A stretch of DNA of 64,000 nt from Candidatus Hydrothermarchaeum profundi (GTDB lineage: Archaea; Hydrothermarchaeota; Hydrothermarchaeia; Hydrothermarchaeales; Hydrothermarchaeaceae): the NCBI GenBank assembly GCA_002011125.2, contig MTMF02000009.1, positions 712,989 to 776,988 of the forward strand, given 5' to 3'. The notes below the pieces were generated by a model. The model worked only from the letters and a program-made list of their open reading frames with translations. It was not told where the DNA came from and did not search any database. A program made the translations under genes and the position numbers. Each line of letters begins with the position of its first letter. Position 1 is the first letter of the stretch. Below, in pieces: positions 2,935 to 31,228 of this stretch.

Positions 2935-2972
2935 TTGCTAACTTCTTGCTTTTTTTTATTTGTTAATAATAT

Positions 2973-10579: not shown

Positions 10580-11008
10580 TTATAGTGCGACTATTTTACC
10601 AACCATATTTGGGTGATATCGGCATTTCAAATCAAAACTGCCTGCTTCATTGAACTTTACTAGTACAGAGTCAGCACTAGAAAGCTCTATATCTATCAAA
10701 GGTTCATCATGGCCTGCTTCGCTTATCGTTACTGTGTGGACTCCCTCTTCGTTTTTGAATTCTATTATTTGACCTTCTTCGACATCTATGTTTGATGGTG
10801 AAAACTCGAAGTTCTTTAATACAACAGTAACAGACGGCACTCCCTCTGAGACGATAGTCGCTTCTTCATGCGCTTCTCCTGCTTCTTCATGTGGCTCTTC
10901 TTCAAGTGTACTAGTCTCAGGTTGCGGGGTAGCTTCTTCAGCTTGCTGTTGAATGCACCCTGCAAGCAAGAATAGAGACAGTAGTAGTACTAGAGGGGCA
11001 TATTTCAC
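10580..11008 (-). CDS. Cupredoxin (type-1 blue copper) lipoprotein
   Basis: Lipobox LAGC; His-Glu linker; ligands H...CRYHPNM. Confidence 0.85.
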   Translation of the reverse strand: MKYAPLVLLLSLFLLAGCIQQQAEEATPQPETSTLEEEPHEEAGEAHEEATIVSEGVPSVTVVLKNFEFSPSNIDVEEGQIIEFKNEEGVHTVTISEAGHDEPLIDIELSSADSVLVKFNEAGSFDLKCRYHPNMVGKIVAL

Positions 11009-11012
11009 TTTT

Positions 11013-11492
11013 TCACCTCCTTTCTACTTTAAAGAATTCAGGATCTCCCATAATGAGTTTAGATGGATTAGGTCCAATGTAGGGTATAACACTATACCTC
11101 CCGGAGGGAGCATCCCCTTTAATTTCCAACTCAAATTTAACTTTTTGTTTTTCACCTATTGTTCCTTCTTTAATCTCGTATACTTCAGCATAAGGCGTAT
11201 AAACCTCAACTTTAGCTAAATATCCTGAGTAATCCATCTTCATTTCCATCCCCGGGGCTAAAGCAATTAGGGTTATAGTAACTTTTGAGGGCTTAGTTAC
11301 AGCATTTTTATCGACTAACACAGTGGGCTCCAGCATATCAATCATCATCTGTTGCATTTCCATCATTTCACTATTCTGTACAGTTCCCCCCAGGATTGTG
11401 TAAGCATTTACGACTATTGCCCCGATTATTATAACAGTATAAAAAAGGATAGGTGGGAATGTTAGTAGACTCTTCATTTTACTCTTCCTCAA
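11013..11492 (-). CDS. Membrane-anchored Met-rich hypothetical protein with Ig-like domain
   Basis: TM, MMEMQQMMIDM and GMEMKM segments. Confidence 0.6.
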   Translation of the reverse strand: MRKSKMKSLLTFPPILFYTVIIIGAIVVNAYTILGGTVQNSEMMEMQQMMIDMLEPTVLVDKNAVTKPSKVTITLIALAPGMEMKMDYSGYLAKVEVYTPYAEVYEIKEGTIGEKQKVKFELEIKGDAPSGRYSVIPYIGPNPSKLIMGDPEFFKVERR

Positions 11493-11880
11493 CTATAATT
11501 TTGCCTTTCATGAAATTGTGCATTGGGCTGCACATGAGAGTACATTTAAATACATATACTCCTTCTTTATCGGCTACGAATTCTATAGTTTTCTTTTTCC
11601 CAACCTCTATTGAACCAAGATCTATTCCTAGACCTTCAATTGCGAATCCATGAGTAACGTCCATGCCTTCAACAATGAGTTTTACCCTATCCCCTTTCTT
11701 TACATGGATTACTTCAGGCTGGAAACCACCTGCTTCTTTAACATATGCCCTAATTATAATAGTCTTCTGCTTTTCTTCAGCCTTTAAAACGTCAGTAAAA
11801 AGAGGCAGTGCAATCATGGCGATTGACATGATTACAAGGACCAATGCAATGAATTCAAACAAATATTCCTTATCTCCCAT
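11479..11880 (-). CDS. Membrane-anchored CuA cupredoxin (COX2/NosZ-CuA-like domain)
   Basis: DVTHGF...CTLMCSPMHNFM binuclear CuA ligand set. Confidence 0.88.
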   Translation of the reverse strand: MGDKEYLFEFIALVLVIMSIAMIALPLFTDVLKAEEKQKTIIIRAYVKEAGGFQPEVIHVKKGDRVKLIVEGMDVTHGFAIEGLGIDLGSIEVGKKKTIEFVADKEGVYVFKCTLMCSPMHNFMKGKIIVEEE

Positions 11881-11891
11881 TATTTATCACC

Positions 11892-16771: not shown

Positions 16772-17530
16772 ATGAAAAAGAAATCTGTTGCAATTGGATT
16801 GGCCATGGCCGTACTCTTTGCAAGTAGCGTGTATGCAATGGGTATGGGTTGGCCAGGCAGATTTGGAGGCCAGATTATGGGCTATGGGTATACAGATGTT
16901 AGCCCTGAGGGGAGTAGATTTGATGCTTTTCTTGTTAACGGATGGAATATGCCACAGCTAGGCATGATGGGTTATGGAATGGGCTCAGGCATGATGACTG
17001 GATACGGTATGATGGGGCCTGGAGGGTGTGAATGGCACGCAGGTTATGGTTGGCAGGCTCCATCTGCTGACATGACTATTGAAGATGCTGAAAAGCTTGT
17101 TGAAGAGTACATTTCGGGTACCAACCTTGAAATAAAAGAGATGATGAATTTCGAGTATAATTATTATGCACAAGTAATTGAGAAAGACACGGGCATAGGA
17201 GCTATGGAATTATTAGTGGATAAATATACTGGGGCTGTTTATCCAGAACCAGGGCCAAACATGATGTGGAATACAAAGTACGGCCATATGAGCTGGGGAG
17301 TAGACAAGGAAAATACTGTCACGGAAGATGAGGCATTAAGATATGCGCAGGAATATTTGGACAAATATCTTCCGGGATTAGTGGTTGAAGAGCATGCAGA
17401 TGAGTTCTATGGGTATTACACAATACATGTTACTACTGAAGGCGAAATTGTAGGAATGCTGAGTGTCAATGGCTTTACTGGGCAGGTCTGGTATCATACT
17501 TGGCATGGCGACTATTTAGGGGAAAAATAA
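16772..17530 (+). CDS. Secreted Gly/Met-rich protein with PepSY-like domains
   Basis: Signal peptide, GMMG repeats, 'ELLVDKYTGAVYPEPGPNMMWNTKYGHM', 'LSVNGFTGQVWYHTWHG'. Confidence 0.8.
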   Translation: MKKKSVAIGLAMAVLFASSVYAMGMGWPGRFGGQIMGYGYTDVSPEGSRFDAFLVNGWNMPQLGMMGYGMGSGMMTGYGMMGPGGCEWHAGYGWQAPSADMTIEDAEKLVEEYISGTNLEIKEMMNFEYNYYAQVIEKDTGIGAMELLVDKYTGAVYPEPGPNMMWNTKYGHMSWGVDKENTVTEDEALRYAQEYLDKYLPGLVVEEHADEFYGYYTIHVTTEGEIVGMLSVNGFTGQVWYHTWHGDYLGEK

Positions 17531-17573: not shown

Positions 17574-17819
17574 TTGTATATGAAAGAAAAAGATTTGATT
17601 ATAATCCTTGGAGTTCTTTTTTTTATCCCAGGATTTTTGCATGCAGGTATGATGGGGTTTGGACTGCCGATATGGATAATAGTATTAGCAGTCGTTTATT
17701 TTGTCTTAAAAGAAAAGTCCGATGACAGCAGCCTGGAAGAACTGAAAAAAAGGTATGCGAGAGGGGAAATAACTAGAGAAGAATATATTAGGAAAAAAGA
17801 GGAGATAACAAAGCCATGA
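17574..17819 (+). CDS. SHOCT domain membrane protein
   Basis: LKKRYARGEITREEY. Confidence 0.85.
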   Translation: MYMKEKDLIIILGVLFFIPGFLHAGMMGFGLPIWIIVLAVVYFVLKEKSDDSSLEELKKRYARGEITREEYIRKKEEITKP

Positions 17820-18166
17820 GAAATTATTGGGCTTACATAATCTTTGGGTTTCTAGCAGTAATACTAGTGTTGACTTATGGATATGAAAGCGGATACCGGG
17901 CAGCTCCATATAGGTATTGGGGAGGCATGATGCATCATAGCGGCGTTGGCATGATGCATGGGCCTATGATGGGAGGCTATGGTTTTGGAGGTTTTGGACT
18001 ACTTTTCTGGATATTGGTAGTTGTTTTTGTAGTGTTAATACTAAAATGGGGTAAGTCGGAGGAAAGAATAAAGGAGACCCCGATAGATATTCTTAATAAG
18101 AGATTTGCGCGTGGAGAAATAACTAAGGAAGAGTACCTTCGAATTAAAGAGGATATTCTAAAGTGA
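17816..18166 (+). CDS. SHOCT domain membrane protein, Met/His-rich
   Basis: GMMHH/GMMHG; ILNKRFARGEITKEEY. Confidence 0.85.
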   Translation: MRNYWAYIIFGFLAVILVLTYGYESGYRAAPYRYWGGMMHHSGVGMMHGPMMGGYGFGGFGLLFWILVVVFVVLILKWGKSEERIKETPIDILNKRFARGEITKEEYLRIKEDILK

Positions 18167-18224
18167 TAGCATCGCATAAACCTTTTTTTATTTGTTAAAA
18201 AAATAGATAGTGAGGTGAAGAATA

Positions 18225-18494
18225 ATGATTGAATCACAGATGATGGATTGGGGATATGGGGGAGGATATGGGATGATGGGTTATGGCTGGGCTATCTTCA
18301 GCTGGATATTTTTTATCGTCTTCTGGGTGGCGATAATTCTGCTTATTATCTGGCTTTATAAGCAAATAAAGGGCTCAGATACCAGACATACAAGCCCTGC
18401 TGAAACTCCTCTAGAAATTTTGAAAAAGAGATATGCCAGAGGAGAAATAACTCGGGAGCAATATGAGGAAATGAGGAAAGAGATTGAAAAATGA
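18225..18494 (+). CDS. SHOCT domain membrane protein
   Basis: GMMG; ILKKRYARGEITREQY. Confidence 0.85.
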   Translation: MIESQMMDWGYGGGYGMMGYGWAIFSWIFFIVFWVAIILLIIWLYKQIKGSDTRHTSPAETPLEILKKRYARGEITREQYEEMRKEIEK

Positions 18495-18985
18495 TCAAAG
18501 CAATCGTATTCCTCATTATACTGACATATTTAAGTGGATGTCTATATCCTCCTTCACCTTTTGACATGTTTGGTGGACAGACCGCACCGCCAATTCAAGA
18601 GGTTAAAGAAGAATTTGAATCCAATGGTGAAATGATTTACTATACTGGGTTTAATGAAAAAGGTGAGAGAATCCAAAGTGATGGCGGTCCACACTGGCTC
18701 TATATGCATGGAGGGGCCTGTGTAAGTTGCCATGGTCCAGATGGTAAAGGAGGAGGGGTACCACACATGTGCACTGAAGTTGTGCCTCCGATAACGTATC
18801 ATGATCTTACTGAGGAAGAACATGGCGAAAGAGAAGAGCATCCACCTTATACCGATGAAGACATAAAAAAAGCTATCACTGTGGGTGTAGATCCTTCTGG
18901 AAATCAGCTAGACCCATGCATGCCTCGGTGGAAGATGTCTGACAAAGATCTTGAAGACTTAATAGAGTATCTTAAGACGCTGTAA
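18491..18985 (+). CDS. Monoheme cytochrome c lipoprotein
   Basis: Lipobox LSGC, CVSCHGPDGKGG, distal MP. Confidence 0.88.
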   Translation: MIKAIVFLIILTYLSGCLYPPSPFDMFGGQTAPPIQEVKEEFESNGEMIYYTGFNEKGERIQSDGGPHWLYMHGGACVSCHGPDGKGGGVPHMCTEVVPPITYHDLTEEEHGEREEHPPYTDEDIKKAITVGVDPSGNQLDPCMPRWKMSDKDLEDLIEYLKTL

Positions 18986-19196: not shown

Positions 19197-20297
19197 ATGG
19201 AATTCGATGCAATAATAGTTGGCGGTAGTTTCGCAGGTTTGACTACAGCTTATTATACGAGGGCTGAAAATCTATTAGTATTAGAGAAAGAGAAGGGTCT
19301 AGGAATCAAGCAGAAGTCTACATGTTGCGCTCCGGTAGACTGGGTAAGTAAGCTAGGAGCTAGGAAAAGTATTCTCAGTAAATTTGATAAAATCGTATTC
19401 CACTCTCCTAAAGAAAGGGCTGAAATCGATCTGCCTATTTACTACTGCACTATCGACTACAAGGTGTTTTGCGAGTCTCTCGCCTCTCAATTAAGAAATA
19501 CTACGATAATGACCAATACAAAAGTAACTGGAGTTAAAGAAAATGGAGTTAAAAAGGTTGTATGCAGTGAAAAGGAGTTTTCCTCTGATATCCTTGTTGA
19601 TGCTAGCGGATGGAGAGCGGTGCTAGCAACAAGTCTCTCTCAGGGGTTGCATGATGTAAAATTCAATATTAGGGGTATAGAGTCCGAGGTGGAATATGAT
19701 ACTGACTATATACACATGTTTTTTGGTAGGCGATTTATCCCGGGAGGCTACGCTTGGATTTTCCCAACTAAAGATGGTCTTTCTAGAGTTGGGCTGGGTA
19801 GCTTTAGAAGGCTGAATCTTTTAGAATTTCAGAGGGGTTTCCTAGAGTTTTTAGGAATCAAGGCGAAAGATTTGCGATATCATGGCGGTATAATCCCCTG
19901 CCTTGGCCTGAGGGACCCAGTAGTGGATAATATTTTCGTCGTTGGTGATGCAGCTGGTCAAGTCCTTCCGGTATCAGGTGAGGGGATCAGAAAAGCTTTT
20001 ATCTATAGCAAGTTATGTGGTGATCTTATATCTAAAGTTTTGTTGGATGATATAAGTCTTAGTGAGGCTTTAAGAGTATATGAGAGAGAAGTTCTACAAG
20101 GAAAGAAATTTTATGATGCCCTCCTTTTCCTTCAAAATATAGTATTTCGTGCACCAGATTGGGCGTTAAACAGGGTGATAAGAAAAGCCGCTAGGGATAG
20201 GTCGATACCGAGAGAGCTTCTAAAAGTATACTACTCGGAAAGTCATGAGTATACCAAGACTAAAATCTTGCAGCAACTTTTGAAAATCTTGCTTTAA
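19197..20297 (+). CDS. Geranylgeranyl reductase-family FAD oxidoreductase
   Basis: GGSFAG, PGGYAWIFP, VGDAAGQV..GEGI. Confidence 0.85.
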   Translation: MEFDAIIVGGSFAGLTTAYYTRAENLLVLEKEKGLGIKQKSTCCAPVDWVSKLGARKSILSKFDKIVFHSPKERAEIDLPIYYCTIDYKVFCESLASQLRNTTIMTNTKVTGVKENGVKKVVCSEKEFSSDILVDASGWRAVLATSLSQGLHDVKFNIRGIESEVEYDTDYIHMFFGRRFIPGGYAWIFPTKDGLSRVGLGSFRRLNLLEFQRGFLEFLGIKAKDLRYHGGIIPCLGLRDPVVDNIFVVGDAAGQVLPVSGEGIRKAFIYSKLCGDLISKVLLDDISLSEALRVYEREVLQGKKFYDALLFLQNIVFRAPDWALNRVIRKAARDRSIPRELLKVYYSESHEYTKTKILQQLLKILL

Positions 20298-20330: not shown

Positions 20331-21146
20331 TTGAGGGATCGGATGAATATAACTAAAATAGGTAGAAGATTGTTGAATTTAACCTTATATTTATTTATAT
20401 TACTTCTTTTATTGAATGTGCTATCTTTTAGCCTCTTAATGCCATTTCCAAAAATTATTCCGCAATCTTCTAACGATCTCTATGCATATGGCAATTGGGC
20501 CGCAGTTGGAATAAGCCTTTTGATTTTTTCTCTTTTTGTTTTAAGCTATATTTCTCCTTTAGAAAAAAAGCATTGGAAGGCATTAGGAATATACGAGGCC
20601 TTTTTGGTTGCACTCTTCACAGAAATGTACGGGTTTCCTCTAACTATATTTCTCCTCTCATCATTCTTAGGACTAGACCTTTCATTTGACCACGTAGGCG
20701 GGCATCTATCCGCAGTATTATTGTCAAAGCTAGGGGTCATGCAAATAAATACTGCGTGGGCTTTAGTCATGGTGTTAAGCAACTTACTCATTGTTGTAGG
20801 CCTAATTTTGATTATCAAAGGATGGAAGAAAATCTATAGATCAAATGGGCTACTTGTAAAAGACGGTGTGTATAGATATATGCGTCATCCACAGTATACG
20901 GGTATCCTCTTAATAACTGTAGGATTTATTGTCCAATGGCCAACTATTATTACAATCATTATGTGGCCTATTCTACTGGTATCTTACTATAGGTTGGCTA
21001 AAAAAGAAGAAAAAACATTGATAAAAGAGTTTCAGGATGAATACTTACAATATGTCAGCGAAACCCCTATGTTCTTACCAAAATTAAATGTATTTGGCTT
21101 CATAAGCGTAGTTATGAACAAACTAAAGAAGCTGAATTCTAGGTGA
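20331..21146 (+). CDS. Isoprenylcysteine carboxyl methyltransferase family membrane protein
   Basis: ALFTEMYGFPLT, GVYRYMRHPQY, EE motif; start may be ATG 20343. Confidence 0.88.
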   Translation: MRDRMNITKIGRRLLNLTLYLFILLLLLNVLSFSLLMPFPKIIPQSSNDLYAYGNWAAVGISLLIFSLFVLSYISPLEKKHWKALGIYEAFLVALFTEMYGFPLTIFLLSSFLGLDLSFDHVGGHLSAVLLSKLGVMQINTAWALVMVLSNLLIVVGLILIIKGWKKIYRSNGLLVKDGVYRYMRHPQYTGILLITVGFIVQWPTIITIIMWPILLVSYYRLAKKEEKTLIKEFQDEYLQYVSETPMFLPKLNVFGFISVVMNKLKKLNSR

Positions 21147-21793
21147 CAATCCAGGAGGTCATATTGTTGAGTGGAAAAGAATTTGTTGAAAGAAAGTATG
21201 ATAGTATATCCCGTTTTTATGACTTTTTCGAATTACCGATGGAGCTACTTTTCTTTAAAAGATGGAGGCGCCTTGCGATTTCAAGGTTAAAAAGTGGTAG
21301 AGTTCTTGAAGTTGGCGTTGGAACGGGAAAAAATCTACCTTATTATGATAGTTCTTTTGAAATATATGGGATAGATATAAGCGAAAAAATGCTATTAAAA
21401 GCCAAAAAAAGAGCTAAAAGATTAAATATATCTCTAAAAATTTATAAAATGGATGTTCAGAATCTCGAATTCCCAGATAATTACTTTGACGGTGAATTTT
21501 CTACGTTTGTATTTTGCTCTGTGCCCGATCCTATTGCTGGCCTTTCTGAATTGATGAGAGTTTTGAAAAAGGATGGAATAGCAGTATTTTTAGAGCATGT
21601 TAGGCCAAAGGGTTTATTAGGTCTTATATTTGATTTTTTTAATCCTATTAGTGTGAGGCTAATAGGAGTTAATATAAATAGAAATACGGTGGAGAATATC
21701 AAAGAAGCGGGCTTTGAAATACTAGAGGAGAATGATCTCTTATTTGATGTTTTCAAATTAATAGTTGCTAAACCATTAGGCAAAGAAGTTTAA
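21143..21793 (+). CDS. Class I SAM-dependent methyltransferase
   Basis: VLEVGVGTGKN, FVFCSVPDP, LEHV. Confidence 0.9.
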   Translation: MTIQEVILLSGKEFVERKYDSISRFYDFFELPMELLFFKRWRRLAISRLKSGRVLEVGVGTGKNLPYYDSSFEIYGIDISEKMLLKAKKRAKRLNISLKIYKMDVQNLEFPDNYFDGEFSTFVFCSVPDPIAGLSELMRVLKKDGIAVFLEHVRPKGLLGLIFDFFNPISVRLIGVNINRNTVENIKEAGFEILEENDLLFDVFKLIVAKPLGKEV

Positions 21794-22091: not shown

Positions 22092-22160
22092 TTACATACA
22101 ACTCTTGTGACATTTACATGTTGAATATTTATCTTTTTTTTCAAGCTTTTTGATTTTCAT
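22092..22160 (-). CDS. 22-aa Cys/His microprotein MKIKKLEKKDKYSTCKCHKSCM (copy 1)
   Basis: ATG..TAA read manually; RBS GGTGAGGTG; upstream BRE/TATA motif; T-rich tract downstream; paralog at 25528-25596. Confidence 0.85.
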   Translation of the reverse strand: MKIKKLEKKDKYSTCKCHKSCM

Positions 22161-22196
22161 CTATAACACCTCACCTTATGACTATAAGTCTAGTTT

Positions 22197-22215
22197 TATA
22201 TAGTTTTTTACTGCA
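22197..22215 (-). promoter_or_regulatory. Promoter motif TGCAGTAAAAAACTATATA (BRE/TATA-like), copy 1
   Basis: Identical 19-mer at 25635-25653, at nearly the same distance from each peptide ATG. Confidence 0.75.
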
Positions 22216-22337
22216 GAAATACTATATATTCTAATATAAATTTTTAATAAAGCATACACATATATGAATTATTTATCAAAGTGAAGAAAATTAAATTCTG
22301 AATCCTCAATCCTCAAGCCTTCTCAAAGAATCTGGCA

Positions 22338-24776
22338 TTATTTCTCTTTAATATACTTGGTATCAGATAAAATTGTCATAATTATGCCAAGGATGAAAAA
22401 TATTATGCCTAACCAGATTTCATTTATAAGAGGTTTCAACTTCACAGTTATAGGAATCTCACCTTCTCCATATACTCCATCGAATATAACGAAAACGTCC
22501 CTCAATAAGCTTCTATCTATTAGAGGTCTTCTAGCAATTCCATTTTTATAAGTTTCAACTTTTGCTACACCTCCTCCAATTCTGTTATAACCTTTGTAAA
22601 CATCTATTTTTATTTGTTGGATGGTCTTATATGGACTACCCTTAAGATTTTGTTGAAACTCTTCAAATCGGGGCGACAAAACTATTATATCAAAAGTTTT
22701 ATTCAGAGTCTGACTTGTAAAATTTAGCAGCAATGTGGCATCATAAACTACTAACTCAATCCCCCTCGGGACGTTGGCTTTATTGACAGCGACCCATAAA
22801 GTCTTGTTATCTCCTACAAGCTTGATATAGGTGTTATGTTCCAATTGTATTACTTCCTCAACTATGCCTCGAATAGTATAGGAATCTCTATAACTGCCTT
22901 GGGCAATTTCATTATATAACTCAGAAACGCTTATCCCTGGAGGAGAATAATACTCTATTTTCTCTTCACTTCCATAATCTACGATTTCTTTATAGTCTAA
23001 TAGCATAATAGAGTAGGGGCTCCATCCTTCTCCGGAATGCACGCCCCAGGTTCCAAGCCTACCAAATCCTTCATGTACTTTTGCGGGTTCAATGCTTATA
23101 AGTTGGCCCTTATTATTGAGGCTTAAAGTAGCTGAAAAGTTGGAAGTAAAGAGACTGGAAAACACGATTCCAAGGCTAATTAACACTACCCCTAAATGAA
23201 TAGAAATTATTCCCAACTCTTTAATCTTGTATTTTTTCCTACTACCTTCTGAAATTCTCAATCTCCATCTTTCTATTGCAGCAAAAAAAATATAAATTGA
23301 GGGAGGTATTATGCTAAGTGCAGAGGTAGATCCTATAACTCGATATAATAAGGGTTTTGAAGAACTTACTATTGCTGTGTAATCAATTATGTTGAAATTT
23401 TCATTGGGTTTTATTATACCGGCTATTAGTGTAAAAACTGAGAACCCTATGAAAGCTAACATTGCTCGCCTCCTGATTGATTCATGGTAATGTAATCCTA
23501 GGCCTACGAGAAGGAGCATTATTATGAAGAATGGAAAAATCCAAAGATTGAAGAACTGGACGGTGACAGCGTATTTCTTCGTAGTAAGTGATTTAATTAT
23601 TGGGGGGTAAGTTATACCAAAAAAAGAGATAAAAGTAATTATTAAAATGACTAATATTGCTGCATAAAAGATGTTAGTCCTATTCAATATGCGATTTTCC
23701 TCTTTTTCTATTTTTTCTGTTTTCAAATATTTTATTATTCCTAACACCAGAGGAAGAATAAAAGATCCTACAGCCAATATTATGATGAACTTCCCAACGT
23801 TTCCTGAAATGAAAGAGTGTACAGATTCAAAAATACCACTTCTAGTAACCATAGTCGCATATACTACAAAAGAAAATGAAAACGATACAAGCACCGGTGC
23901 TAGAATATTATATCTCTCCTTATTTCTTCTTAGTTCTACTACTGTATGTATTGCCCCGGTCAGCATCAGCCACGGGAGGAGCATAGCTGTCTCAACCGGG
24001 TCCCATGCCCAGAATCCTCCCCATCCCAAGGTCTTATAAGCCCAGATACCTCCAAATGCCATAGAGAGGGTCGAGAAAAGCCAAGAAACCCTTAGCCACT
24101 GGATACCTTTTTCTATCCATATCCTATGCGCGACTTCTTCGTTCTTCCCCCTAAAGGTAAGGTATAGGTAGACCAAAGCGCCGGCAAACGGTACAGTAGT
24201 ACCTGCATACCCAAGAAAGGTGGTCAAAGGGTGAGTAGCCATCCATGGGTCAAGCAATAAGGGGTTTAGACCATTACCGTCTTCAGGGATAAAATCCTTA
24301 GGTAATTCGAGGTAGAGTTGATGAATAGTCTTGAAGGGAGAATCAAGTAATGTTAGAAAACTAAAATACAATGCAAGAAAAATAACTATTATCTGCGTTT
24401 TCTTGACAAAATCCGATGTACTATCCTTAGTTTCATTAAGCCAAAGGCTACCAATACCTATAAGAGCTGCCCAGAAAAGGAGAGTGCCCTGTTGACCCGC
24501 TAAAGCTCCTGAGAGTCGATAGTATAGTGGATAATACTTACTAGAAAATGCCCATACGTAGTTTAAGCTAAAATCACTAACTGCGAAGTAATATGAAAGC
24601 AATATAAAGTCTAAGAAAAGCACTGTGGAGAATCCTCTAATAAGCCATTTTACATAATTGCTAAATTTTAAAAGGAAATTCAGTTGCTCGCATATTAAAC
24701 CCGCAAGTGCTACTACAGCTAGAATAACACTTATATAGAGTAGTAAGTCGCCTATCGGAGTTGTGAGGTTAAGCAT
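22338..24776 (-). CDS. ccmF: Cytochrome c heme lyase CcmF/NrfE family, long form with C-terminal insertion
   Basis: AGQQGTLLFW, GNGLNPLL, HP, LGWGGFWAWDPVE (WWD), SVHSF, HLG. Confidence 0.92.
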   Translation of the reverse strand: MLNLTTPIGDLLLYISVILAVVALAGLICEQLNFLLKFSNYVKWLIRGFSTVLFLDFILLSYYFAVSDFSLNYVWAFSSKYYPLYYRLSGALAGQQGTLLFWAALIGIGSLWLNETKDSTSDFVKKTQIIVIFLALYFSFLTLLDSPFKTIHQLYLELPKDFIPEDGNGLNPLLLDPWMATHPLTTFLGYAGTTVPFAGALVYLYLTFRGKNEEVAHRIWIEKGIQWLRVSWLFSTLSMAFGGIWAYKTLGWGGFWAWDPVETAMLLPWLMLTGAIHTVVELRRNKERYNILAPVLVSFSFSFVVYATMVTRSGIFESVHSFISGNVGKFIIILAVGSFILPLVLGIIKYLKTEKIEKEENRILNRTNIFYAAILVILIITFISFFGITYPPIIKSLTTKKYAVTVQFFNLWIFPFFIIMLLLVGLGLHYHESIRRRAMLAFIGFSVFTLIAGIIKPNENFNIIDYTAIVSSSKPLLYRVIGSTSALSIIPPSIYIFFAAIERWRLRISEGSRKKYKIKELGIISIHLGVVLISLGIVFSSLFTSNFSATLSLNNKGQLISIEPAKVHEGFGRLGTWGVHSGEGWSPYSIMLLDYKEIVDYGSEEKIEYYSPPGISVSELYNEIAQGSYRDSYTIRGIVEEVIQLEHNTYIKLVGDNKTLWVAVNKANVPRGIELVVYDATLLLNFTSQTLNKTFDIIVLSPRFEEFQQNLKGSPYKTIQQIKIDVYKGYNRIGGGVAKVETYKNGIARRPLIDRSLLRDVFVIFDGVYGEGEIPITVKLKPLINEIWLGIIFFILGIIMTILSDTKYIKEK

Positions 24777-24794
24777 TCTGCCCTCCCCTATAAG

Positions 24795-25265
24795 TTATTG
24801 TATGTTGTCATAGTAGAAATCCCGCACTTCTTTAATTATACTATAAAACTTCTCCTTCGGCACGTAACCAGGGACCTTCGTTATAACTTCTCCTTCGGGC
24901 GTCAGAAAAAGCTCATAAGGAGGTGCTTGTACATTGAATCTACGGGTGTCTTGCTTATTAACGTCCATATCTACGGCTATGAGTACAAAGTCCTTCTCTA
25001 ATATCTCAAAAGTAGGCTCATAAGGAAACACTTCAACTTGCATTTTCTCGCAATAGGTACACCAGATGGTCCAAAAATAAACAAAGATGGGTTTATTAAG
25101 TTCTCGGGCCACTTTAGCTCCTTCATCGTATGAGTTATACCATCGGAGTCCACTTAGGTATGTGTATTTCTCGTCGCTCACCATTGGAGTCGCATTAACT
25201 GCGTAATATACATAGACACCGATCACAACTAGTGCGGCAATAGTGAGTAGTTTTTTAGTTTTCAC
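24795..25265 (-). CDS. Membrane-anchored thioredoxin-fold protein (SoxW/DsbD-gamma-like)
   Basis: N-terminal TM, WCTYC. Confidence 0.85.
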   Translation of the reverse strand: MKTKKLLTIAALVVIGVYVYYAVNATPMVSDEKYTYLSGLRWYNSYDEGAKVARELNKPIFVYFWTIWCTYCEKMQVEVFPYEPTFEILEKDFVLIAVDMDVNKQDTRRFNVQAPPYELFLTPEGEVITKVPGYVPKEKFYSIIKEVRDFYYDNIQ

Positions 25266-25281
25266 AGCTGATCTAGCCTCG

Positions 25282-25470
25282 TTATTCTGTTTTCTTTTTC
25301 ATTGCGAAGTGGTTGCCGTGGGAATGTTTCCCCATTAATTTAAGATCTCCAACTAGACCAAAGATGAATCCTAAGCCCGGGGCGATATAGGTATACGGAC
25401 CTCCCAAGTATTGACCGATTACCAGTCCGCCAAAAAATCCTACACAGCACATCATGTCAAGATCCCTCAC
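25282..25470 (-). CDS. Small 2-TM protein with CC motif and His-rich tail
   Basis: MMCCVGFFGG..., HSHGNH; true start probably the ATG of MMCC. Confidence 0.6.
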   Translation of the reverse strand: MRDLDMMCCVGFFGGLVIGQYLGGPYTYIAPGLGFIFGLVGDLKLMGKHSHGNHFAMKKKTE

Positions 25471-25527
25471 TAGACGTTATAATGGGCTTTTGCACTTTTG
25501 TCGATCCTTTTATCTTATAGAGGCCTG

Positions 25528-25596
25528 TTACATACAACTTTTATGGCATTTGCAGGTCGAATACCTGTTTTCTTTCTCAACTTTTTTGATTTTCAT
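25528..25596 (-). CDS. 22-aa Cys/His microprotein MKIKKVEKENRYSTCKCHKSCM (copy 2)
   Basis: ATG..TAA read manually; RBS GGGTGA; shared promoter motif; paralog of 22092-22160. Confidence 0.85.
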   Translation of the reverse strand: MKIKKVEKENRYSTCKCHKSCM

Positions 25597-25634
25597 CTAT
25601 CAATCACCCTAAAGCTCTACATACATGAACAGAA

Positions 25635-25653
25635 TATATAGTTTTTTACTGCA
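25635..25653 (-). promoter_or_regulatory. Promoter motif TGCAGTAAAAAACTATATA, copy 2
   Basis: Identical to 22197-22215. Confidence 0.75.
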
Positions 25654-25752: not shown

Positions 25753-26250
25753 TCAGGTAATAGAAGTTAGGGTTTTTAAAAAATCTTTCGCATCGATAAA
25801 GCCTACAATCTTTTTGATGATTTTTCCTTCCGGATCAACGAACACTAAGGTGGGGGTTCCTCGAACACCGAATTTTATTATTATTGGGATGTTCTCTCTA
25901 TCATTCACATCAATAGATGCTAGTATGAAATTCTCTTCTAGAGCAGATTTTACTTTTTTGTCTGATAGTACATCTGAGTCGAATTTCATACACCATACAC
26001 AGGACTCTGATCTGAAGTAGACTAGCGTTGGTTTTCTGGACTCGCCGGCTATCTTAACTGCTTTGTCATAAGATGTATAAAATGGTAGTCCGGAGATTAG
26101 GATGATTTCTTCATTCGGATCTGAAATATTCCCTAGAGAGCCTATTTCAGTTATTTTCTCGGTATCACCTCTGATTCCATAGATTCCCCAAAAAATAGCA
26201 AAGGATGCTAGTAACACTACAGCTATAATGAGAATTTTCTGTATCTCCAC
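25753..26250 (-). CDS. Membrane-anchored thioredoxin-fold protein
   Basis: N-terminal TM, CVWC, GVRGTPT. Confidence 0.85.
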   Translation of the reverse strand: MEIQKILIIAVVLLASFAIFWGIYGIRGDTEKITEIGSLGNISDPNEEIILISGLPFYTSYDKAVKIAGESRKPTLVYFRSESCVWCMKFDSDVLSDKKVKSALEENFILASIDVNDRENIPIIIKFGVRGTPTLVFVDPEGKIIKKIVGFIDAKDFLKTLTSIT

Positions 26251-26544: not shown

Positions 26545-27054
26545 ATGAAAAAAAATTTAATATTCGCCGTGGTTTCCGCAATGGCTACGGGATTAATTCT
26601 CATGTTTTTTATTCTATATCTTACAAATACTCCGAGTGAAGCTATAAGCGAGGCAGATGTTACAAAGACGGTCAATGGTAATCAAGAAAAGACAGATGAG
26701 TACTACACTAGAGTAAGTCCTGGAAATATTGAAGTAACCGCTATTTTTTTAAATCCAAATTATGGTGATAAATTCGAGAGTTCTATAGCCTTTTATATTC
26801 GGTTAGATACCCACTCGGGGGATCTCTTCTCATATGATATAGAGGAATTAACTGAGTTGATTGATAATGACGGCAGGAGATATAAGCCAATAAAATGGTC
26901 AGAATCAGAGAATTCATGGGGGCATCATAGATCTGGACTATTGGAATTTGAAAGATTCGATAAAAGCGGGAGGGATCTTCTAAGTCAAGAGCGTTTGAAA
27001 CTTGTAATTAAGGGGATAGAGAGAGACATAGAGTTTGTGTGGGACGTGGAGTGA
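26545..27054 (+). CDS. Membrane-anchored hypothetical protein with His motifs
   Basis: AGGAGG RBS; LDTHSGDL and GHHRSG motifs. Confidence 0.7.
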   Translation: MKKNLIFAVVSAMATGLILMFFILYLTNTPSEAISEADVTKTVNGNQEKTDEYYTRVSPGNIEVTAIFLNPNYGDKFESSIAFYIRLDTHSGDLFSYDIEELTELIDNDGRRYKPIKWSESENSWGHHRSGLLEFERFDKSGRDLLSQERLKLVIKGIERDIEFVWDVE

Positions 27055-27634
27055 TAAAGTGGATAGGAGGTACATCTACGCATTCTTAGGGAGTTTTTCT
27101 TTAACCATTCTCTACATTGGTATAACCTCCTTAGGTGGAGGAGTCGAGCTTTTTAAGGCAGAGTTTAGAGAGTTGTGGTATTTTTTGCTACCCCTCATAG
27201 GAGGTTTTGGGCTACAAATATGGTTGTTTAGCCATATCAGACTATATGGGAAAGGCGAAGGGAAAAAAGAGGTTGCTACAACAGGCTGTGTTTCGACAGG
27301 TTCTATGATTGCATGTTGTGCTCACCATGTCACAGATATATTGCCCTTTGTTGGTTTGACTGCAGCTGCGGTAGTTTTAGCCGACTATCAACGCCCCCTC
27401 CTTTTGATAGGGAACCTCTCTAATGTAATAGGAGCGATATGGATGCTAGATATAATTCAAAAGTTTCATCTATACAGCGAGGAAAGCAGGTTTAAGGCCC
27501 TTGAGAGAATTCATTTTGGAGCGTTAAAGTGGCATATTATACTTTCTGCCATAGCGATATTTATAGTATATCTTATAATTTATAATCCATCGAAAATAAA
27601 TGTGGAAGAAATGCTAAAATTAGCAAGTTCCTGA
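27035..27634 (+). CDS. Membrane protein with CCAHH motif (putative metal binding)
   Basis: 'STGSMIACCAHH', several TM; start uncertain. Confidence 0.7.
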   Translation: MCGTWSDKVDRRYIYAFLGSFSLTILYIGITSLGGGVELFKAEFRELWYFLLPLIGGFGLQIWLFSHIRLYGKGEGKKEVATTGCVSTGSMIACCAHHVTDILPFVGLTAAAVVLADYQRPLLLIGNLSNVIGAIWMLDIIQKFHLYSEESRFKALERIHFGALKWHIILSAIAIFIVYLIIYNPSKINVEEMLKLASS

Positions 27635-27888: not shown

Positions 27889-28842
27889 TCATAAGTATCT
27901 CCATTTAAATATTTTTCTCATTTTTTCAACTTCTTCTTTGACAATATTTTCTACATCCGGCACTGCGTTTTTTTCTATTTCCATATTTGCTAGTACAGCG
28001 GATCTTATACTACTTAGAAGTTTTACACCAGTTATCTTAGTTACTTCAGGGTCGACATTTCCAAAGGGGGAGACATCAGCAATTGTAATGTTACAGGGCT
28101 GTATAAGCATATCGGGTGTAAGTCTGTTATGAGACGCTAAAGTAGCGCATATCAATAGGTCAGCTTTTTCCACAGCTTTCATCAAATCTCTGTAGAGTAT
28201 GGATCTACCTCCCACTTCTGCCGCTGTAAGTTTAGCGATGTCAAAGTGCCTATGAGCAACTGCTATCTCTGCTCCAAGCTTTCTAATCTTTTTCGCAATC
28301 CTTCTCCCCAGTAGGCCCGCTCCTAGTAGTATGACTATTCTCCCTTCAAAAGTCTGGAATTCCTTTTGAATAGAGGATAACACTAATTTTTCGACAGTAG
28401 GACTTCCTCCAATATTAGTTTCATTCCACGCTCTCTGGGAGACTTTGAGAGCTCCTTTAAATAGAGATTTTAGGAAGGGGTGGAGGGTGGAATTCTTCTC
28501 TGCGCAGTCTAAGGAGCTTTTCACCAGCCGAGGGATATAGGTCTCACCATAAACCTTTGATTCGATCCCCCCTACTAGTCTCATTAAATGCTCCACAGCC
28601 TTTTCATCGTAGTATATAAGGAATTCCTTTCTTCTCTCGTTATATAACACTTCTAGGATATCATCGATCTCTTTTTCTTCTTCCACTAACGCGTAGACTT
28701 CAATCCTCGTACCACTTTGAAATAAAATTGTTTTCCCATCGCTAAAAAGCCTATAGAATTCTGCGGGATTCTTAAAATAAAATCCGAGAAAGTCGGCGTA
28801 AGGAATTTTAATGTGATGTAGAGATAAGCATACAAGACGCAT
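27889..28842 (-). CDS. Glutamyl-tRNA reductase-like protein, catalytic Cys absent and dimerisation domain missing
   Basis: AVEHLMRLVGGIESKVYGE, GAGLLG Rossmann motif; SGTRIE in place of TCNRxE. Confidence 0.75.
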   Translation of the reverse strand: MRLVCLSLHHIKIPYADFLGFYFKNPAEFYRLFSDGKTILFQSGTRIEVYALVEEEKEIDDILEVLYNERRKEFLIYYDEKAVEHLMRLVGGIESKVYGETYIPRLVKSSLDCAEKNSTLHPFLKSLFKGALKVSQRAWNETNIGGSPTVEKLVLSSIQKEFQTFEGRIVILLGAGLLGRRIAKKIRKLGAEIAVAHRHFDIAKLTAAEVGGRSILYRDLMKAVEKADLLICATLASHNRLTPDMLIQPCNITIADVSPFGNVDPEVTKITGVKLLSSIRSAVLANMEIEKNAVPDVENIVKEEVEKMRKIFKWRYL

Positions 28843-28973: not shown

Positions 28974-30134
28974 GTGAGAGTGTCGGATACTCCCCTTTTG
29001 GATGAGGCTGAGAAAGGTCCATGGCCGAGTCTTGTCACAGAGATAAAGAAAACGGGATTTAAAGGCCTACTCAAAATATATGAGCTGGCTTATGAGGATA
29101 AAGTAACTCACTGGACTCATGGAGGGATGGTAGGCTACCCCGGATATGATGCGGGGGTAATAGGCAGGCTTAGCGATCGGCATGACATTCTTAGAGATTG
29201 CCATACTATACGGATGATACAGCCAGCGGCTTGGTTTTACAGCACAAAAAAGTTGAGAAAGCTTGTTGAGATCTGGAATAAGTACTCATACGGCTTGATG
29301 AACTTTCATGGAGCGACCGGAGATTTTCAATTAATCGGCATAGAAACAGATAAAATAGAGCCTTTCTTCGATGAAGTCTCGAAGGAGCACTGGGATATAG
29401 GGGGCTCTGCCGGTGACTTTAGGACTGCAAGCTGTTGTATAGGTCCCGCTAGGTGTGAGATGGCCCTGATAGATACTTTGGATATCTATCAGACGCTGAT
29501 GAGTGACGAAGAGATATTGAATGATATGCATAGACCAAGGTTTCCATACAAATTCAAAGTAAAGATAGCTGGTTGTCCAACTGATTGCATTGCTGGTGTA
29601 GCTAGGGCAGACCTATTGGTCGTAGGAACATGGAGGGATAATATTAAGATAAACCAGGAGGAGGTAAGGAAATACGCTGAGAAGGGAGTAGATATTGGTT
29701 TAATAGCTTCGAAATGTCCTGGAAATGCTATGCAGTGGGATGGAGAGGAGCTTAAGATTGATAATGATAACTGCATGCGTTGTATGTTCTGCCTTCAAAA
29801 AATGTCTAAGGCTCTTAGACCTGGAGATGATAGGGGTGCTACCCTGGTTATGGGTGGTAGGGCTAGGGGGAGATATGGAGCCTTTTTAGGATGGGTTTTA
29901 ATGCCCTTTATCAAACTCGAAAAGCCCTATGAAGAGCTTAAAGACCTCATATACAAGCTCATTGACTGGTGGGATGAGAATGGCAGAACAAAGGAGAGGA
30001 TCGGCGAGACTATATACAGGTTGGGAGCAGGTAAGTTCTTAAAAGAGACTGGTTTGAAGCCGCATCCAGCGATGGTTCAAGCTCCTAGGAATAATCCTTT
30101 CTGGTTCTATTGGCCTGGAGAAGTAGAAGAGTGA
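28974..30134 (+). CDS. dsrA: Dissimilatory sulfite reductase alpha subunit
   Basis: TPLLDE..KGPWPS, THWTHGG, NFHGATGD, CIGPARC, FPYKFK..GCPTDC, CMRCMFC; likely start GTG 28980. Confidence 0.93.
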   Translation: MRVSDTPLLDEAEKGPWPSLVTEIKKTGFKGLLKIYELAYEDKVTHWTHGGMVGYPGYDAGVIGRLSDRHDILRDCHTIRMIQPAAWFYSTKKLRKLVEIWNKYSYGLMNFHGATGDFQLIGIETDKIEPFFDEVSKEHWDIGGSAGDFRTASCCIGPARCEMALIDTLDIYQTLMSDEEILNDMHRPRFPYKFKVKIAGCPTDCIAGVARADLLVVGTWRDNIKINQEEVRKYAEKGVDIGLIASKCPGNAMQWDGEELKIDNDNCMRCMFCLQKMSKALRPGDDRGATLVMGGRARGRYGAFLGWVLMPFIKLEKPYEELKDLIYKLIDWWDENGRTKERIGETIYRLGAGKFLKETGLKPHPAMVQAPRNNPFWFYWPGEVEE

Positions 30135-30145
30135 GGTGAGGAGAG

Positions 30146-31228
30146 ATGGCTTTAACTATGGATGAGCTTGACTTTGGACCGCCTGATTATAAGGAAATGC
30201 TACCGGAGACCCTTAAAAGGAACTATGGAAAGTGGATATACCACGAGCTAATAAAGCCGGGAGTATTTAAGCATGTTTCGAGTACTGGGGACGAGGTGTA
30301 CACGGTTAGGTCCGGGCAGCCTAAGTTTATAGCGTCTTCAACAGTTCTTAAGCTGTGTGACTTAGCTGACAAATACTGTGAGGGCTCTTTAAGGTTTACC
30401 AGCAAACATAGTATTGAGTGGATAGTACCGAAAAAAGATGATGTAGATAAGCTGATAGAAGAGTTAAAGAAACTCGGGTTACCGATAGGAGGAACAGGAA
30501 ACGCTATGCATAGTATTGTGCAGTGTACCGGCTGGGTGCACTGTCATACCCCTGCAACTGATGCTCCCGGAATCGCCAAGGCAGTTTATGATGAGTTAAT
30601 CTCTTACTTCCAGAGGGATGACTTGCCTGCTAGACTGAATATAGCTGTCTCTGGGTGTTTGAATATGTGTGGCGCTATTCACTGCTCGGATATAGCGGTT
30701 CTCGGCGTACATAGGCGTCCGCCAAAGGTGAATGATGAGGTAGTATCAAAAGCATGTGAGATTCCTACTATGATAGCTTCGTGTCCTACCTACGCTATCA
30801 AGCCCAATCCAAAGGCGAAAAGCATTAGGATTGATGCTAATAAATGCATGTATTGTGGAATCTGCTATAGTATTTGCCCGGGGGTACCTATTGCAGATGC
30901 GAAGAACGATGGAGTTTCTATTTGGGTAGGTGGGAAGGTATCTAATACTCGAAGTGGTCCAGCGTTTTCACGTTTAGCGGTTCCTTATCTGCCGAATAAT
31001 CCTCCTAGGTGGCCGGAGGTAGTGGAGGTAGTAAAGAAGATAGTGGAGACATGGGCGAGTGAAGCTAAGCCTCATGAGAGAATGGGCGAGTGGATTTCAA
31101 GGATAGGATGGCCTGCTTTCTTCGATAAGACGGGTCTAGAGTTTACGGATAAACACATTGATGACTATATCTTTTCTATTAGAGATATGAGAGTTGGTGC
31201 TAGGATAAGGGGACGTGAGATGAAGTGA
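30146..31228 (+). CDS. dsrB: Dissimilatory sulfite reductase beta subunit
   Basis: GPP..NYGKW, GWVHCHTPATD, CLNMCGAIHCSD, CEIP..CPT, CMYCGIC, PNNPPRWPE. Confidence 0.93.
   Translation: MALTMDELDFGPPDYKEMLPETLKRNYGKWIYHELIKPGVFKHVSSTGDEVYTVRSGQPKFIASSTVLKLCDLADKYCEGSLRFTSKHSIEWIVPKKDDVDKLIEELKKLGLPIGGTGNAMHSIVQCTGWVHCHTPATDAPGIAKAVYDELISYFQRDDLPARLNIAVSGCLNMCGAIHCSDIAVLGVHRRPPKVNDEVVSKACEIPTMIASCPTYAIKPNPKAKSIRIDANKCMYCGICYSICPGVPIADAKNDGVSIWVGGKVSNTRSGPAFSRLAVPYLPNNPPRWPEVVEVVKKIVETWASEAKPHERMGEWISRIGWPAFFDKTGLEFTDKHIDDYIFSIRDMRVGARIRGREMK

Follow-up and report, generated by a model that had tools for sequence, protein, structure and literature searches.

Short cysteine-core peptides encoded with a radical SAM/SPASM enzyme in archaea and bacteria: candidate precursors of a modified metal-handling peptide

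Radical S-adenosylmethionine (radical SAM) enzymes of the SPASM type that act on cysteine-rich peptides are already known as a class. In the SbtM/SbtA thio(seleno)oxazole system, a radical SAM/SPASM maturase turns a peptide cysteine into a heterocycle without O2, according to the accessible part of the source (Lewis et al. 2021, as covered in PMC12538549), and the bufferins and methanobactins are described in the accessible part of PMC11626156 as copper-binding RiPPs (ribosomal peptides that are modified after translation) made by MNIO enzymes. The ICMT-family membrane proteins CzcN and NccN are encoded in metal-resistance operons, and the accessible part of PMC7563307 assigns them no substrate. 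This work concerns two 22-codon genes in a stretch of 64,000 nucleotides from Candidatus Hydrothermarchaeum profundi (assembly GCA_002011125.2, contig MTMF02000009.1, positions 712,989 to 776,988 of the forward strand), referred to here as the window, and the family of peptides to which they belong, termed CKC peptides. Members of this family are encoded in several phyla beside a radical SAM/SPASM gene and a gene for a 46-aa protein with three cysteines (p46). The reading that we favour, with moderate confidence, is that CKC peptides are precursors of RiPPs made by this radical SAM enzyme for copper or thiophilic-metal handling.

Both minus-strand open reading frames (ORFs) were recovered exactly where an earlier note on this DNA had placed them (Table 1), and its description of the two loci proved accurate. 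The 11-codon core YSTCKCHKSCM differs between the copies at six codons, all synonymously (TCA/TCG, ACA/ACC, TGT/TGC twice, CAC/CAT and AAG/AAA), and the N-terminal half carries four replacements (L6V, K9E, D10N and K11R) along with two further synonymous changes. GGTGA-type ribosome-binding sites (RBSs) lie 6-8 nt ahead of each ATG, and a shared 19-mer, TGCAGTAAAAAACTATATA, has its 3' end 36 nt (copy 1) or 38 nt (copy 2) ahead of the ATG. This 19-mer has exactly two sites in the 2.19-Mb genome, and the same two when up to two mismatches are allowed; a near-identical element, TTTGCAGCAAAAAACTATAT, stands upstream of one peptide copy in G015, a genome of another family. The motif is taken as a putative conserved promoter or operator, and its BRE/TATA label is one that we infer from position and composition. 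Copy 2 heads the run of peptide, 62-aa membrane protein, thioredoxin-like and CcmF-like genes that had been described for it, with gaps of ~70, 16 and 18 nt, and has no T-runs after it. Copy 1 stands alone with T-runs on its 3' side and is convergent with an operon of genes resembling geranylgeranyl reductase (GGR), ICMT and UbiE.

A third copy, MEIKKIEKENRYSTCKCHKSCM, was found on another contig of the source genome (G000:C8:96423-96491) by a six-frame genome scan. Protein searches of 61 related genomes (Hydrothermarchaeales) returned conserved homologues in 20 of them at E<=0.01, often in 2-4 copies, and the peptide is encoded in 43 of 53 Methanoperedenaceae genomes, in 23 of 81 genomes of a Nitrospirae-labelled class searched with the peptide first, and in metagenome-assembled genomes (MAGs) of Syntrophaceae, Desulfobacterales and Dehalococcoidia. 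Members are 20-22 residues long and follow the consensus M-x-I-x-K-[VIL]-x-K-K-x3-5-C-K-C-[HK]-x-S-C-[x], with a basic N-terminal half and a C-terminal cysteine core that is near-invariant across phyla. The residue after the second cysteine varies among members (H, K, S, C or Y), and the C-terminus, which is C in bacteria and C plus one variable residue in archaea, is not of the CaaX type. In a variant, MKISKINKKVLYSCAQCHKGCM (L043/L027, G021:C2), the first cysteine is moved by one position, giving C-x2-C-H rather than C-x-C-H; it still lies directly upstream of p46 and the radical SAM gene.

Purifying selection, which had been proposed from the two copies of the window, was found across 34 distinct 22-codon archaeal genes, in which the proportion of synonymous differences (pS) is 0.93 (saturated) against a proportion of non-synonymous differences (pN) of 0.23; within the cysteine core (codons 12-22) of these copies pN is 0.14. 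For the three copies of the source genome pS is 0.91 and pN 0.064, with a core pN of 0. Where enough upstream sequence was available, a GGTGA or GGAGGTGA RBS precedes all 32 of 32 Hydrothermarchaeales-type copies. A chance origin of the twin ORFs is unlikely in view of the third copy in the genome and of the conservation across phyla under strong purifying selection, and the ORFs are almost certainly real, conserved coding genes. Pfam and NCBIfam gave no match for the peptide. None of eight family peptides looked up (three of the source genome and five of other genomes) was present in a collection of 15 billion proteins, and the family peptides are therefore regarded as unannotated.

The third copy lies in a translationally coupled cassette (Table 1) in which the TAA stop of the peptide gene abuts the ATG of p46 and the p46 stop overlaps the ATG of the radical SAM gene (TAATG). 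A ferritin-like gene is located divergently upstream of this cassette. The same peptide-p46-radical SAM unit recurs in many relatives and is conserved across archaea and bacteria. An ortholog of the radical SAM gene was detected in 16 of the 61 relatives, 15 of which also carry the peptide, and in the remaining one the radical SAM gene is broken at a contig end. The Methanoperedenaceae (n=53) divide into 37 genomes with both genes, 6 with the peptide only, 1 with the radical SAM gene only and 9 with neither.

Across 185,579 species genomes, a pattern derived from the radical SAM alignment matched at least 599 times; tblastn confirmed 469 of these matches, and the best 80 loci were examined. 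These come from MAGs of Hydrothermarchaeales, Archaeoglobaceae, Methanoperedens, Syntrophaceae/Thermodesulfobacteriota and Desulfobacterales, and also of Dehalococcoidia, Thermoleophilia, Nitrospirae and Asgard archaea. p46 was detected by tblastn beside the radical SAM gene in 59 of the 80, with further instances recognised by eye, and a family peptide lies within 3 kb of the radical SAM gene in 52, on the same strand in all but one (51/52). Two gene orders were seen: in Hydrothermarchaeales and Desulfobacterales the peptide is upstream of p46, and in Syntrophaceae and others it follows the radical SAM gene ~35 nt downstream. The 28 of these 80 loci that lack a nearby peptide are mostly from Methanoperedens; five such genomes were searched whole, and four have copies elsewhere (two clear, two low-scoring with convincing sequences). 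In the peptide-first search of the Nitrospirae-labelled class, which is unbiased with respect to the radical SAM gene, that gene ends 39-100 nt before the peptide in 13 of 20 fetched loci. No further gene is universally conserved around the radical SAM gene; an ATP-grasp protein is encoded at 18 loci and an FAD amine-oxidase-like protein at 12. Taken together, the peptides are very probably tied in function to the p46-radical SAM pair.

The radical SAM protein has a recognisable core (PF04055, E 1.7e-23) with a CxxxCxxC motif (C101, C105 and C108) that is invariant in 14 orthologs. Its invariant C-terminal residues are C299, G310, C315, C350, C353, C359, C363 and C381, that is, seven cysteines with the spacing of the seven-cysteine SPASM motif; the Pfam SPASM model gave no match at E<=0.01. 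In CteB, a substrate cysteine binds at the open iron site of an auxiliary cluster, and by analogy the presence of seven rather than eight conserved cysteines would be compatible with a CteB-like open iron site. An AlphaFold2 model (pLDDT 91.5) places N-terminal strands at residues 3-28 and then helices at residues 31-64 ahead of the barrel. Foldseek comparison with the PDB returned the RiPP maturases CteB (5WHY), SkfB (6EFN) and SuiB as best matches, followed by anSME, with ~20-23% identity to the CteB and SkfB structures; the full-length alignments reach CteB and SuiB, which bear a RiPP recognition element (RRE), and the protein has no PqqD Pfam match. Enzymes of five lineages (Hydrothermarchaeales, Syntrophaceae, Desulfobacterales, Methanoperedens and Dehalococcoidia) were compared with the NCBIfam equivalogs, and all models, among them AhbD, NirJ, ScmE, MftC, PqqE, PapB, CcpM, SbtM and TIGR04083, scored below their cut-offs; the best was AhbD (116 bits vs 500), with MftC at 89.9 bits vs 265 and TIGR04082 (SbtM) at 80.8 vs 350.

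The partner p46 consists of 46 aa with three invariant cysteines and is predicted to form a helix-loop-helix hairpin (pLDDT 88), for which Foldseek returned nothing in the PDB at E<=10. No Pfam or NCBIfam match was obtained for p46, and an ESM Atlas search gave unnamed 'hypothetical protein' clusters (best score 0.89). Its homologues form 133 representative clusters in a set of 1.84 billion proteins, and those with names are likewise called 'hypothetical protein'. Of 120 listed homologues, two (P0010 and P0062, both Methanoperedens) are fusion proteins in which a YHS metal-binding domain precedes p46 at its N-terminus. The predicted complex of p46 with the radical SAM enzyme scored 0.02 against a mark of 0.32. 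In Desulfobacterales and relatives (L110, L113, L092 and L090; ~2520-3000), a protein of ~120-150 aa with two p46-like tri-cysteine repeats stands in place of p46, between the peptide and the radical SAM gene.

Table 1. Location of the CKC peptide genes and associated features (window positions unless a contig is given)
Feature	Position	Strand	Basis
CKC-peptide gene copy 1 (MKIKKLEKKDKYSTCKCHKSCM, 22 aa)	22092..22160	minus	sequence, family membership, selection
CKC-peptide gene copy 2 (MKIKKVEKENRYSTCKCHKSCM, 22 aa)	25528..25596	minus	sequence, family membership, selection
Promoter-like 19-bp motif TGCAGTAAAAAACTATATA upstream of copy 1	22197..22215	minus	genome-wide motif search
Promoter-like 19-bp motif, second occurrence, upstream of copy 2	25635..25653	minus	genome-wide motif search
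Third peptide copy, p46 and radical SAM/SPASM gene (387 aa)	G000:C8:96423-97792 (= L001:8424-9796), outside the window		
Geranylgeranyl-reductase-family flavoprotein	19197..20297	plus	family search
ICMT/PEMT-family membrane methyltransferase	20331..21146	plus	family search
UbiE-like class I SAM methyltransferase	21143..21793	plus	family search
CcmF/NrfE-like heme lyase paralog, 812 aa, WWD motif present	22338..24776	minus	Pfam/NCBIfam
Membrane-anchored thioredoxin-like protein (WCxxC)	24795..25265	minus	Pfam/NCBIfam
Membrane protein, 62 aa, N-terminal MMCC, C-terminal His-rich tail	25282..25470	minus	no Pfam/NCBIfam match
Second membrane-anchored thioredoxin-like protein (CxxC)	25753..26250	minus	Pfam/NCBIfam
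Membrane protein, 199 aa, Cys/His motif GCVSTGSMIACCAHH	27035..27634	plus	no Pfam/NCBIfam match

For 34 distinct copies of the Hydrothermarchaeales type, part of which had been fetched via the radical SAM gene, neighbouring genes were counted out to a distance of 3 kb. The census gave the radical SAM gene at 13 copies, a CopA-type ATPase at 8, a PadR-TRASH regulator at 6, thioredoxin-like proteins at 6, CcmF-like proteins at 5, a GGR-like flavoprotein at 5, a UbiE-like methyltransferase at 3 and a homologue of the 199-aa membrane protein of the window at 3. For CopA, the random expectation is roughly 1.5% per 6-kb interval (four CopA-like genes in 2.19 Mb). The corresponding counts for 25 Methanoperedenaceae copies are 6 for the radical SAM gene, 6 for GGR-like, 3 for UbiE-like, 3 for ICMT-like and 2 for CopA. 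Several peptide copies begin just past the C-terminus of CopA, one Methanoperedens copy follows a P-type ATPase, and in G011 a tight operon encodes cytochrome c, a small thioredoxin, CopZ (HMA, MHCGAC), the peptide 24 nt further on and a GGR-like protein. A Nitrospirae MAG combines ICMT-like, peptide, Met-rich and YHS-CopA genes at one locus. Methanoperedens has a recurrent module in which an ICMT-like gene is followed by a fused GGR-methyltransferase gene divergent from the peptide and then by the peptide, beyond which lie genes for a secreted protein, a pair of MacB-type permeases, an ABC ATPase and a Met-rich protein. Met-rich proteins and cytochromes c also recur beside peptide copies away from the radical SAM cassette.

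The dispersed peptide copies and the window share the same set of neighbours. The GGR-like gene is the commonest shared neighbour of copies away from the radical SAM cassette (13 loci), with L128, L131 and L133 having it immediately downstream of the peptide; in Methanoperedenaceae it is fused to a class I methyltransferase (611 aa, L159:2940-4775, minus strand), the two being separate neighbouring genes in the window. An ICMT-family gene lies within 3 kb of 5 of 101 peptide copies, and at further loci; homologues of the window's ICMT-family product that are 43-57% identical are encoded beside the peptide or the radical SAM gene in Methanoperedens and in one Nitrospirae MAG. The UbiE-like gene adjoins the peptide in G026 and G032, and in the window all three genes converge on copy 1. 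Thioredoxin-like genes recur near peptide copies in Hydrothermarchaeales, and homologues of the 199-aa membrane protein are found beside copies in L122, L136 and L153. The 62-aa membrane protein has no homologue in the relatives' loci at E<=1e-5, and the product of 26545-27054 has no Pfam or NCBIfam match. Two clusters of 137-aa and 177-aa ORFs were initially considered as neighbours and were dropped as antisense frames inside CopA genes.

Elsewhere in the window, cupredoxin and CuA-like proteins are encoded at 10580-13916 and a Met-rich secreted protein at 16772-17530. CuA-like C-x3-C-x3-H-x2-M motifs occur in the products of 11479-11880 and 11892-13916 (both minus strand), the latter (674 aa) having a cupredoxin-like head and a polytopic membrane domain with a ferredoxin-type cysteine motif; homologues of the CuA-like proteins are found near the radical SAM gene or the peptide in Methanoperedens (L087 and L160). 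Three tandem small Met/His-rich SHOCT membrane proteins, of which two contain stretches rich in Gly/Met/His, are encoded at 17574-18494 (plus strand), with a monoheme cytochrome c just after them at 18491-18985, and homologues recur near peptide copies in relatives. Just past this island lie a pair of NIR_SIR-domain (sulfite/nitrite reductase-like) genes and a glutamyl-tRNA reductase (HemA-like) gene (28974-31228, plus strand; 27889-28842, minus strand), and a 2011-aa ORF at 32179-38214 (plus strand) with weak matches to Ig-like or invasin-type domains is probably a giant surface protein.

A dedicated radical SAM partner and recurrent copper-handling neighbours make it probable that a new modified metal-binding peptide is derived from the CKC peptide. 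The two parts of this reading differ in strength: the peptides are likely substrates of the radical SAM enzyme, and for a product that serves copper or thiophilic-metal handling the balance is even, this role being suggested by gene neighbourhood and one domain fusion. The earlier note had proposed a RiPP precursor from the basic leader and invariant cysteine core; the radical SAM cassette supports the proposal, and the accompanying analogy with methanobactin fails (see below). In the mechanism that we envisage, both window ORFs would be translated and would serve as extra precursor genes, sharing a promoter element within a copper, thiol-redox and cytochrome island, while the maturase cassette and third precursor are encoded on the other contig, G000:C8. 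The RRE-like N-terminal domain of the enzyme may bind the basic leader, and the enzyme may then modify the cysteine core, forming a thioether (as CteB and SkfB do), a thiooxazole (as SbtM does) or another structure, with p46 and the accessory genes perhaps taking part. The product would bind or buffer Cu(I) or another thiophilic metal, as a counterpart, independent of O2, to the bufferins and methanobactins that MNIO enzymes make; in some lineages the GGR-like, ICMT-like and UbiE-like enzymes might tailor it further and MacB-type ABC transporters might export it. A core that is near-invariant across phyla would suit a RiPP with a housekeeping or cofactor-like role and not a bacteriocin.

Several observations weigh against the reading of the peptides as radical SAM substrates with a metal-handling product. 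No ortholog of the radical SAM gene was detected in 5 of the 20 peptide-bearing relatives (genomes 70-96% complete) or in 6 of the 43 peptide-bearing Methanoperedenaceae (incomplete MAGs), and these peptide-only genomes leave a role independent of the radical SAM enzyme possible. The 80 loci collected with the radical SAM gene first, and the count of that gene among the neighbours, are biased toward it, many flanks end at contig ends, and the co-occurrence tables overstate their statistics because related genomes are not independent; even so, several phyla show the peptide-radical SAM pattern, and they do so with two gene orders. For a RiPP, 11 residues make a very short leader; the cluster has no conserved protease, and the actual substrate could be p46 instead of the 22-mer. 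Conversion of thiols to thioethers by the radical SAM enzyme would remove the simplest metal-binding chemistry, the CopA gene nearest to the window copies is ~54 kb away with none close to either, and no RNA sequencing run carrying the locus was found among the runs searched, which contained it in two DNA runs only, one of them perhaps from the source sample itself.

The alternative that survives best, which we consider unlikely, is that the peptide is an unmodified mini-metallothionein or metallochaperone that would hold Cu(I) through Cys3(His/Met) and pass it to CopA or CopZ, the radical SAM enzyme and p46 acting on another target, such as p46 itself, and being merely co-regulated. A mini-metallothionein or copper chelator had been among the earlier note's alternatives; CopA, CopZ, PadR-TRASH and Met-rich neighbours and the YHS-p46 fusion give it contextual support, which is compatible with the RiPP reading as well. 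The peptide sits directly after CopA or CopZ genes in a position like that of CopZ or CopT, and neither it nor p46 has an HMA, TRASH or YHS match of its own in Pfam or NCBIfam. A bare metal site would have no need of the basic N-terminal half, which is conserved too, and co-regulation would have to account for adjacency to the radical SAM gene across phyla, in both gene orders and almost always on one strand. The peptide-only genomes would suit a chaperone, as would p46 if its three invariant cysteines, encoded just upstream of the radical SAM gene, made it the alternative substrate; against this, its predicted fold as a helical hairpin is unlike that of a typical precursor, and the RRE-like domain of the enzyme is typical of peptide maturases.

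Somewhat less probable is a peptide-derived redox cofactor like pyrroloquinoline quinone (PQQ) or mycofactocin, with p46 as the partner protein and the GGR-like enzyme and methyltransferases acting in later steps. The compact unit, in which a small protein and a radical SAM/SPASM enzyme accompany a peptide of 20-22 aa, is of this type, the core is near-invariant, neither a protease nor an exporter is universally conserved, and MftC and PqqE are among the NCBIfam matches of the enzyme, albeit far below their cut-offs. No dependent dehydrogenase family recurs nearby, the recurrent neighbours being metal-handling genes instead, and several dispersed precursor copies per genome are unusual for a cofactor precursor.

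A speculative extension of comparable improbability is that CKC peptides are the natural substrates, long missing, of prokaryotic ICMT-family (CzcN-like) membrane methyltransferases and of orphan GGR paralogs. The polybasic, cysteine-ended peptide would be S-isoprenylated, its lipid saturated by the GGR-like enzyme and the carboxyl group of its C-terminal cysteine methylated, in what would be a prokaryotic equivalent of the way K-Ras, Rab or a-factor is processed, and a membrane-anchored cysteine cluster tailored by the radical SAM enzyme could then capture Cu(I) beside CopA. Gene context is what suggests this, in that GGR-like, ICMT-like and UbiE-like genes recur by the peptide in Hydrothermarchaeales and Methanoperedens, an ICMT-like gene does so in the Nitrospirae MAG, and Methanoperedens has GGR and methyltransferase as one fused gene. 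We know of no link between CzcN and a Cys-terminal peptide.

The heme-lyase explanation, in which the peptide, with its non-canonical CxCH, would serve the adjacent CcmF paralog as substrate or regulator and thus be a covalently hemylated micropeptide, had been raised by the earlier note and is now very unlikely. The 2.19-Mb genome encodes four CcmF/NrfE-like paralogs, one CcmC and one CcmE, which suggests several specialised heme lyases; the other three paralogs are at G000:C9:1023316-1025622, 1044274-1045647 and 1642475-1643593, and since the canonical ccmC-ccmE-ccmF cluster is at C9:1.643-1.645 Mb, the CcmF of the window is an extra paralog. The bracketing of a ccmF-thioredoxin cassette by two peptide genes is real and recurs once, as peptide-Trx-CcmF-Trx-peptide with a 51% identical CcmF paralog in G015; in G025 and G011 the distance between CcmF and a peptide is 4-7 kb. 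The family is not defined by this bracketing. A CcmF paralog near the peptide is confined to four genomes (G000, G011, G025 and G015), and none was found outside Hydrothermarchaeales in the loci examined. CcmF orthologs of at least 55% identity are present in nine relatives and share a contig with the peptide only in G011 and G025; in the other seven, including the near-complete 20-contig G026, the ortholog and every peptide copy are on different contigs. Small c-type cytochromes do stand beside peptide copies in several lineages, and the H or K after the second cysteine recalls the c-type heme motifs CXXCH and CXXCK. The C-K-C-H of the peptide has a single residue between the cysteines, where CXXCH or CXnCH/K (n>=2) has two or more, and to our knowledge this is not a heme-binding spacing; the next position, moreover, is occupied in some members by S, C or Y. 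Heme attachment by System I takes place outside the cytoplasm, and neither a signal peptide nor a hydrophobic segment is present in the peptide. Given the lack of an export signal and a cysteine spacing not known for heme binding, CcmF and the thioredoxins are read as members of the same envelope metal and redox island and not as enzymes of the peptide.

That the ORFs act as something other than protein, as a leader or attenuator upstream ORF or as a structured or regulatory RNA, is highly improbable: the great shortness of the ORFs and the operon after copy 2 would suit it, yet amino acids are kept across phyla at saturated synonymous divergence, copy 1 stands alone with T-runs after it, no Rfam family reached threshold for the ORFs (sole match bantam, 28 bits vs 61), and their RNA folds no better than shuffled sequences (z -0.05 and -0.01). 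Least probable, with next to no chance, is that an MNIO (MbnB/DUF692) enzyme turns the peptide into a chalkophore of the methanobactin or bufferin type, as the Lys-rich leader, the core ending SCM as in MbnA and the copper-related context would suggest, since PF05114 (MbnB/MNIO) had no match at E<=0.01 in the 97.65%-complete source genome (a control genome was positive), which excludes the methanobactin route there as far as a genome search goes, the conserved partner is a radical SAM/SPASM enzyme, and MNIO chemistry requires O2 while the hosts are anaerobic.

If the favoured reading is correct, a gene of 20-22 residues that gene callers miss would define a RiPP-like system common to anaerobic archaea and bacteria, with hosts among Hydrothermarchaeales, Methanoperedens and Archaeoglobaceae and among Syntrophaceae, Desulfobacterales, Nitrospirae-labelled, Dehalococcoidia and Thermoleophilia MAGs. 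It would provide an oxygen-independent route to a cysteine-based metal-binding peptide, filling the anoxic gap left by O2-dependent MNIO chemistry, and a new player in the copper homeostasis of methane-oxidising Methanoperedens and of subsurface archaea. It would also supply candidate substrates for an orphan radical SAM family, the tri-cysteine p46, ICMT-like CzcN-type methyltransferases and GGR paralogs. The peptide-p46-radical SAM unit is minimal and small enough for direct biochemistry.

The statement that no archaeal system of this kind had been described agrees with the literature searched, with Pfam and NCBIfam and with the protein collection, within the limit that supplements of mining papers could list the radical SAM cluster. 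A full-text search with five core strings of the peptide returned no paper, the main text of PMC10288494 makes no mention of the motif, and literature searches on radical SAM/SPASM enzymes with archaeal Cys-rich peptides, on ranthipeptides and on Methanoperedens gave only other systems. CrpA/CrpC of Methanococcus voltae, as far as the accessible part of PMC13692751 describes it, is a different system. What is new is the CKC family, its 46-aa partner, the minimal precursor that spans phyla and the copper-locus context, which have no counterpart in Pfam, NCBIfam or the literature searched.

Among described systems, the bufferins and methanobactins resemble the CKC system in comprising a ribosomal Cys-containing peptide with a wide distribution and a copper-stress or copper-handling context, and differ from it, as far as the accessible part of their description goes, in that the CKC system has no MNIO gene or signal peptide, a radical SAM maturase and anaerobic hosts. 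The SbtM/SbtA system, on the accessible part of its description, is a precedent for radical SAM-made analogues of MNIO metallophore chemistry; its precursor belongs to a different family, and the match of the CKC enzyme to its model is far below cut-off. CzcN and NccN are matched, within what the accessible part of their source covers, by an ICMT-family gene by the peptide or the radical SAM gene in three phyla (the window gene and its homologues). The CopZ and CopT chaperones and small metallothioneins are likewise small cysteine products encoded by copA, copZ and metal-sensing regulators, and the CKC peptide is unlike CopZ and CopT in having no HMA or TRASH fold, in its 20-22 residues and in its coupling to a radical SAM enzyme. 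The PQQ (PqqA/D/E) and mycofactocin (MftA/B/C) systems share the compact arrangement of a very short conserved peptide, a small partner and a radical SAM/SPASM enzyme; p46, however, is a 46-aa helical hairpin and not a PqqD-type RRE of ~90 aa, and the scores of the enzyme stay below the equivalog cut-offs. The residues of the core are Glu and Tyr in the PQQ precursor and Val and Tyr in that of mycofactocin, whereas they are cysteines in CKC peptides. There is also a likeness to the sactipeptide and ranthipeptide systems (CteB/CteA of the SCIFF type and SkfB/SkfA), the source of the best structural matches, in which a radical SAM enzyme with an N-terminal RRE-like region and a SPASM region is also encoded beside a short Cys-rich peptide. 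The CKC system is set apart from these by a precursor of only 20-22 aa with an 11-residue basic leader, by its conserved tri-cysteine partner, by a core that is invariant across two domains of life and by a metal context in place of sporulation or antibiosis.

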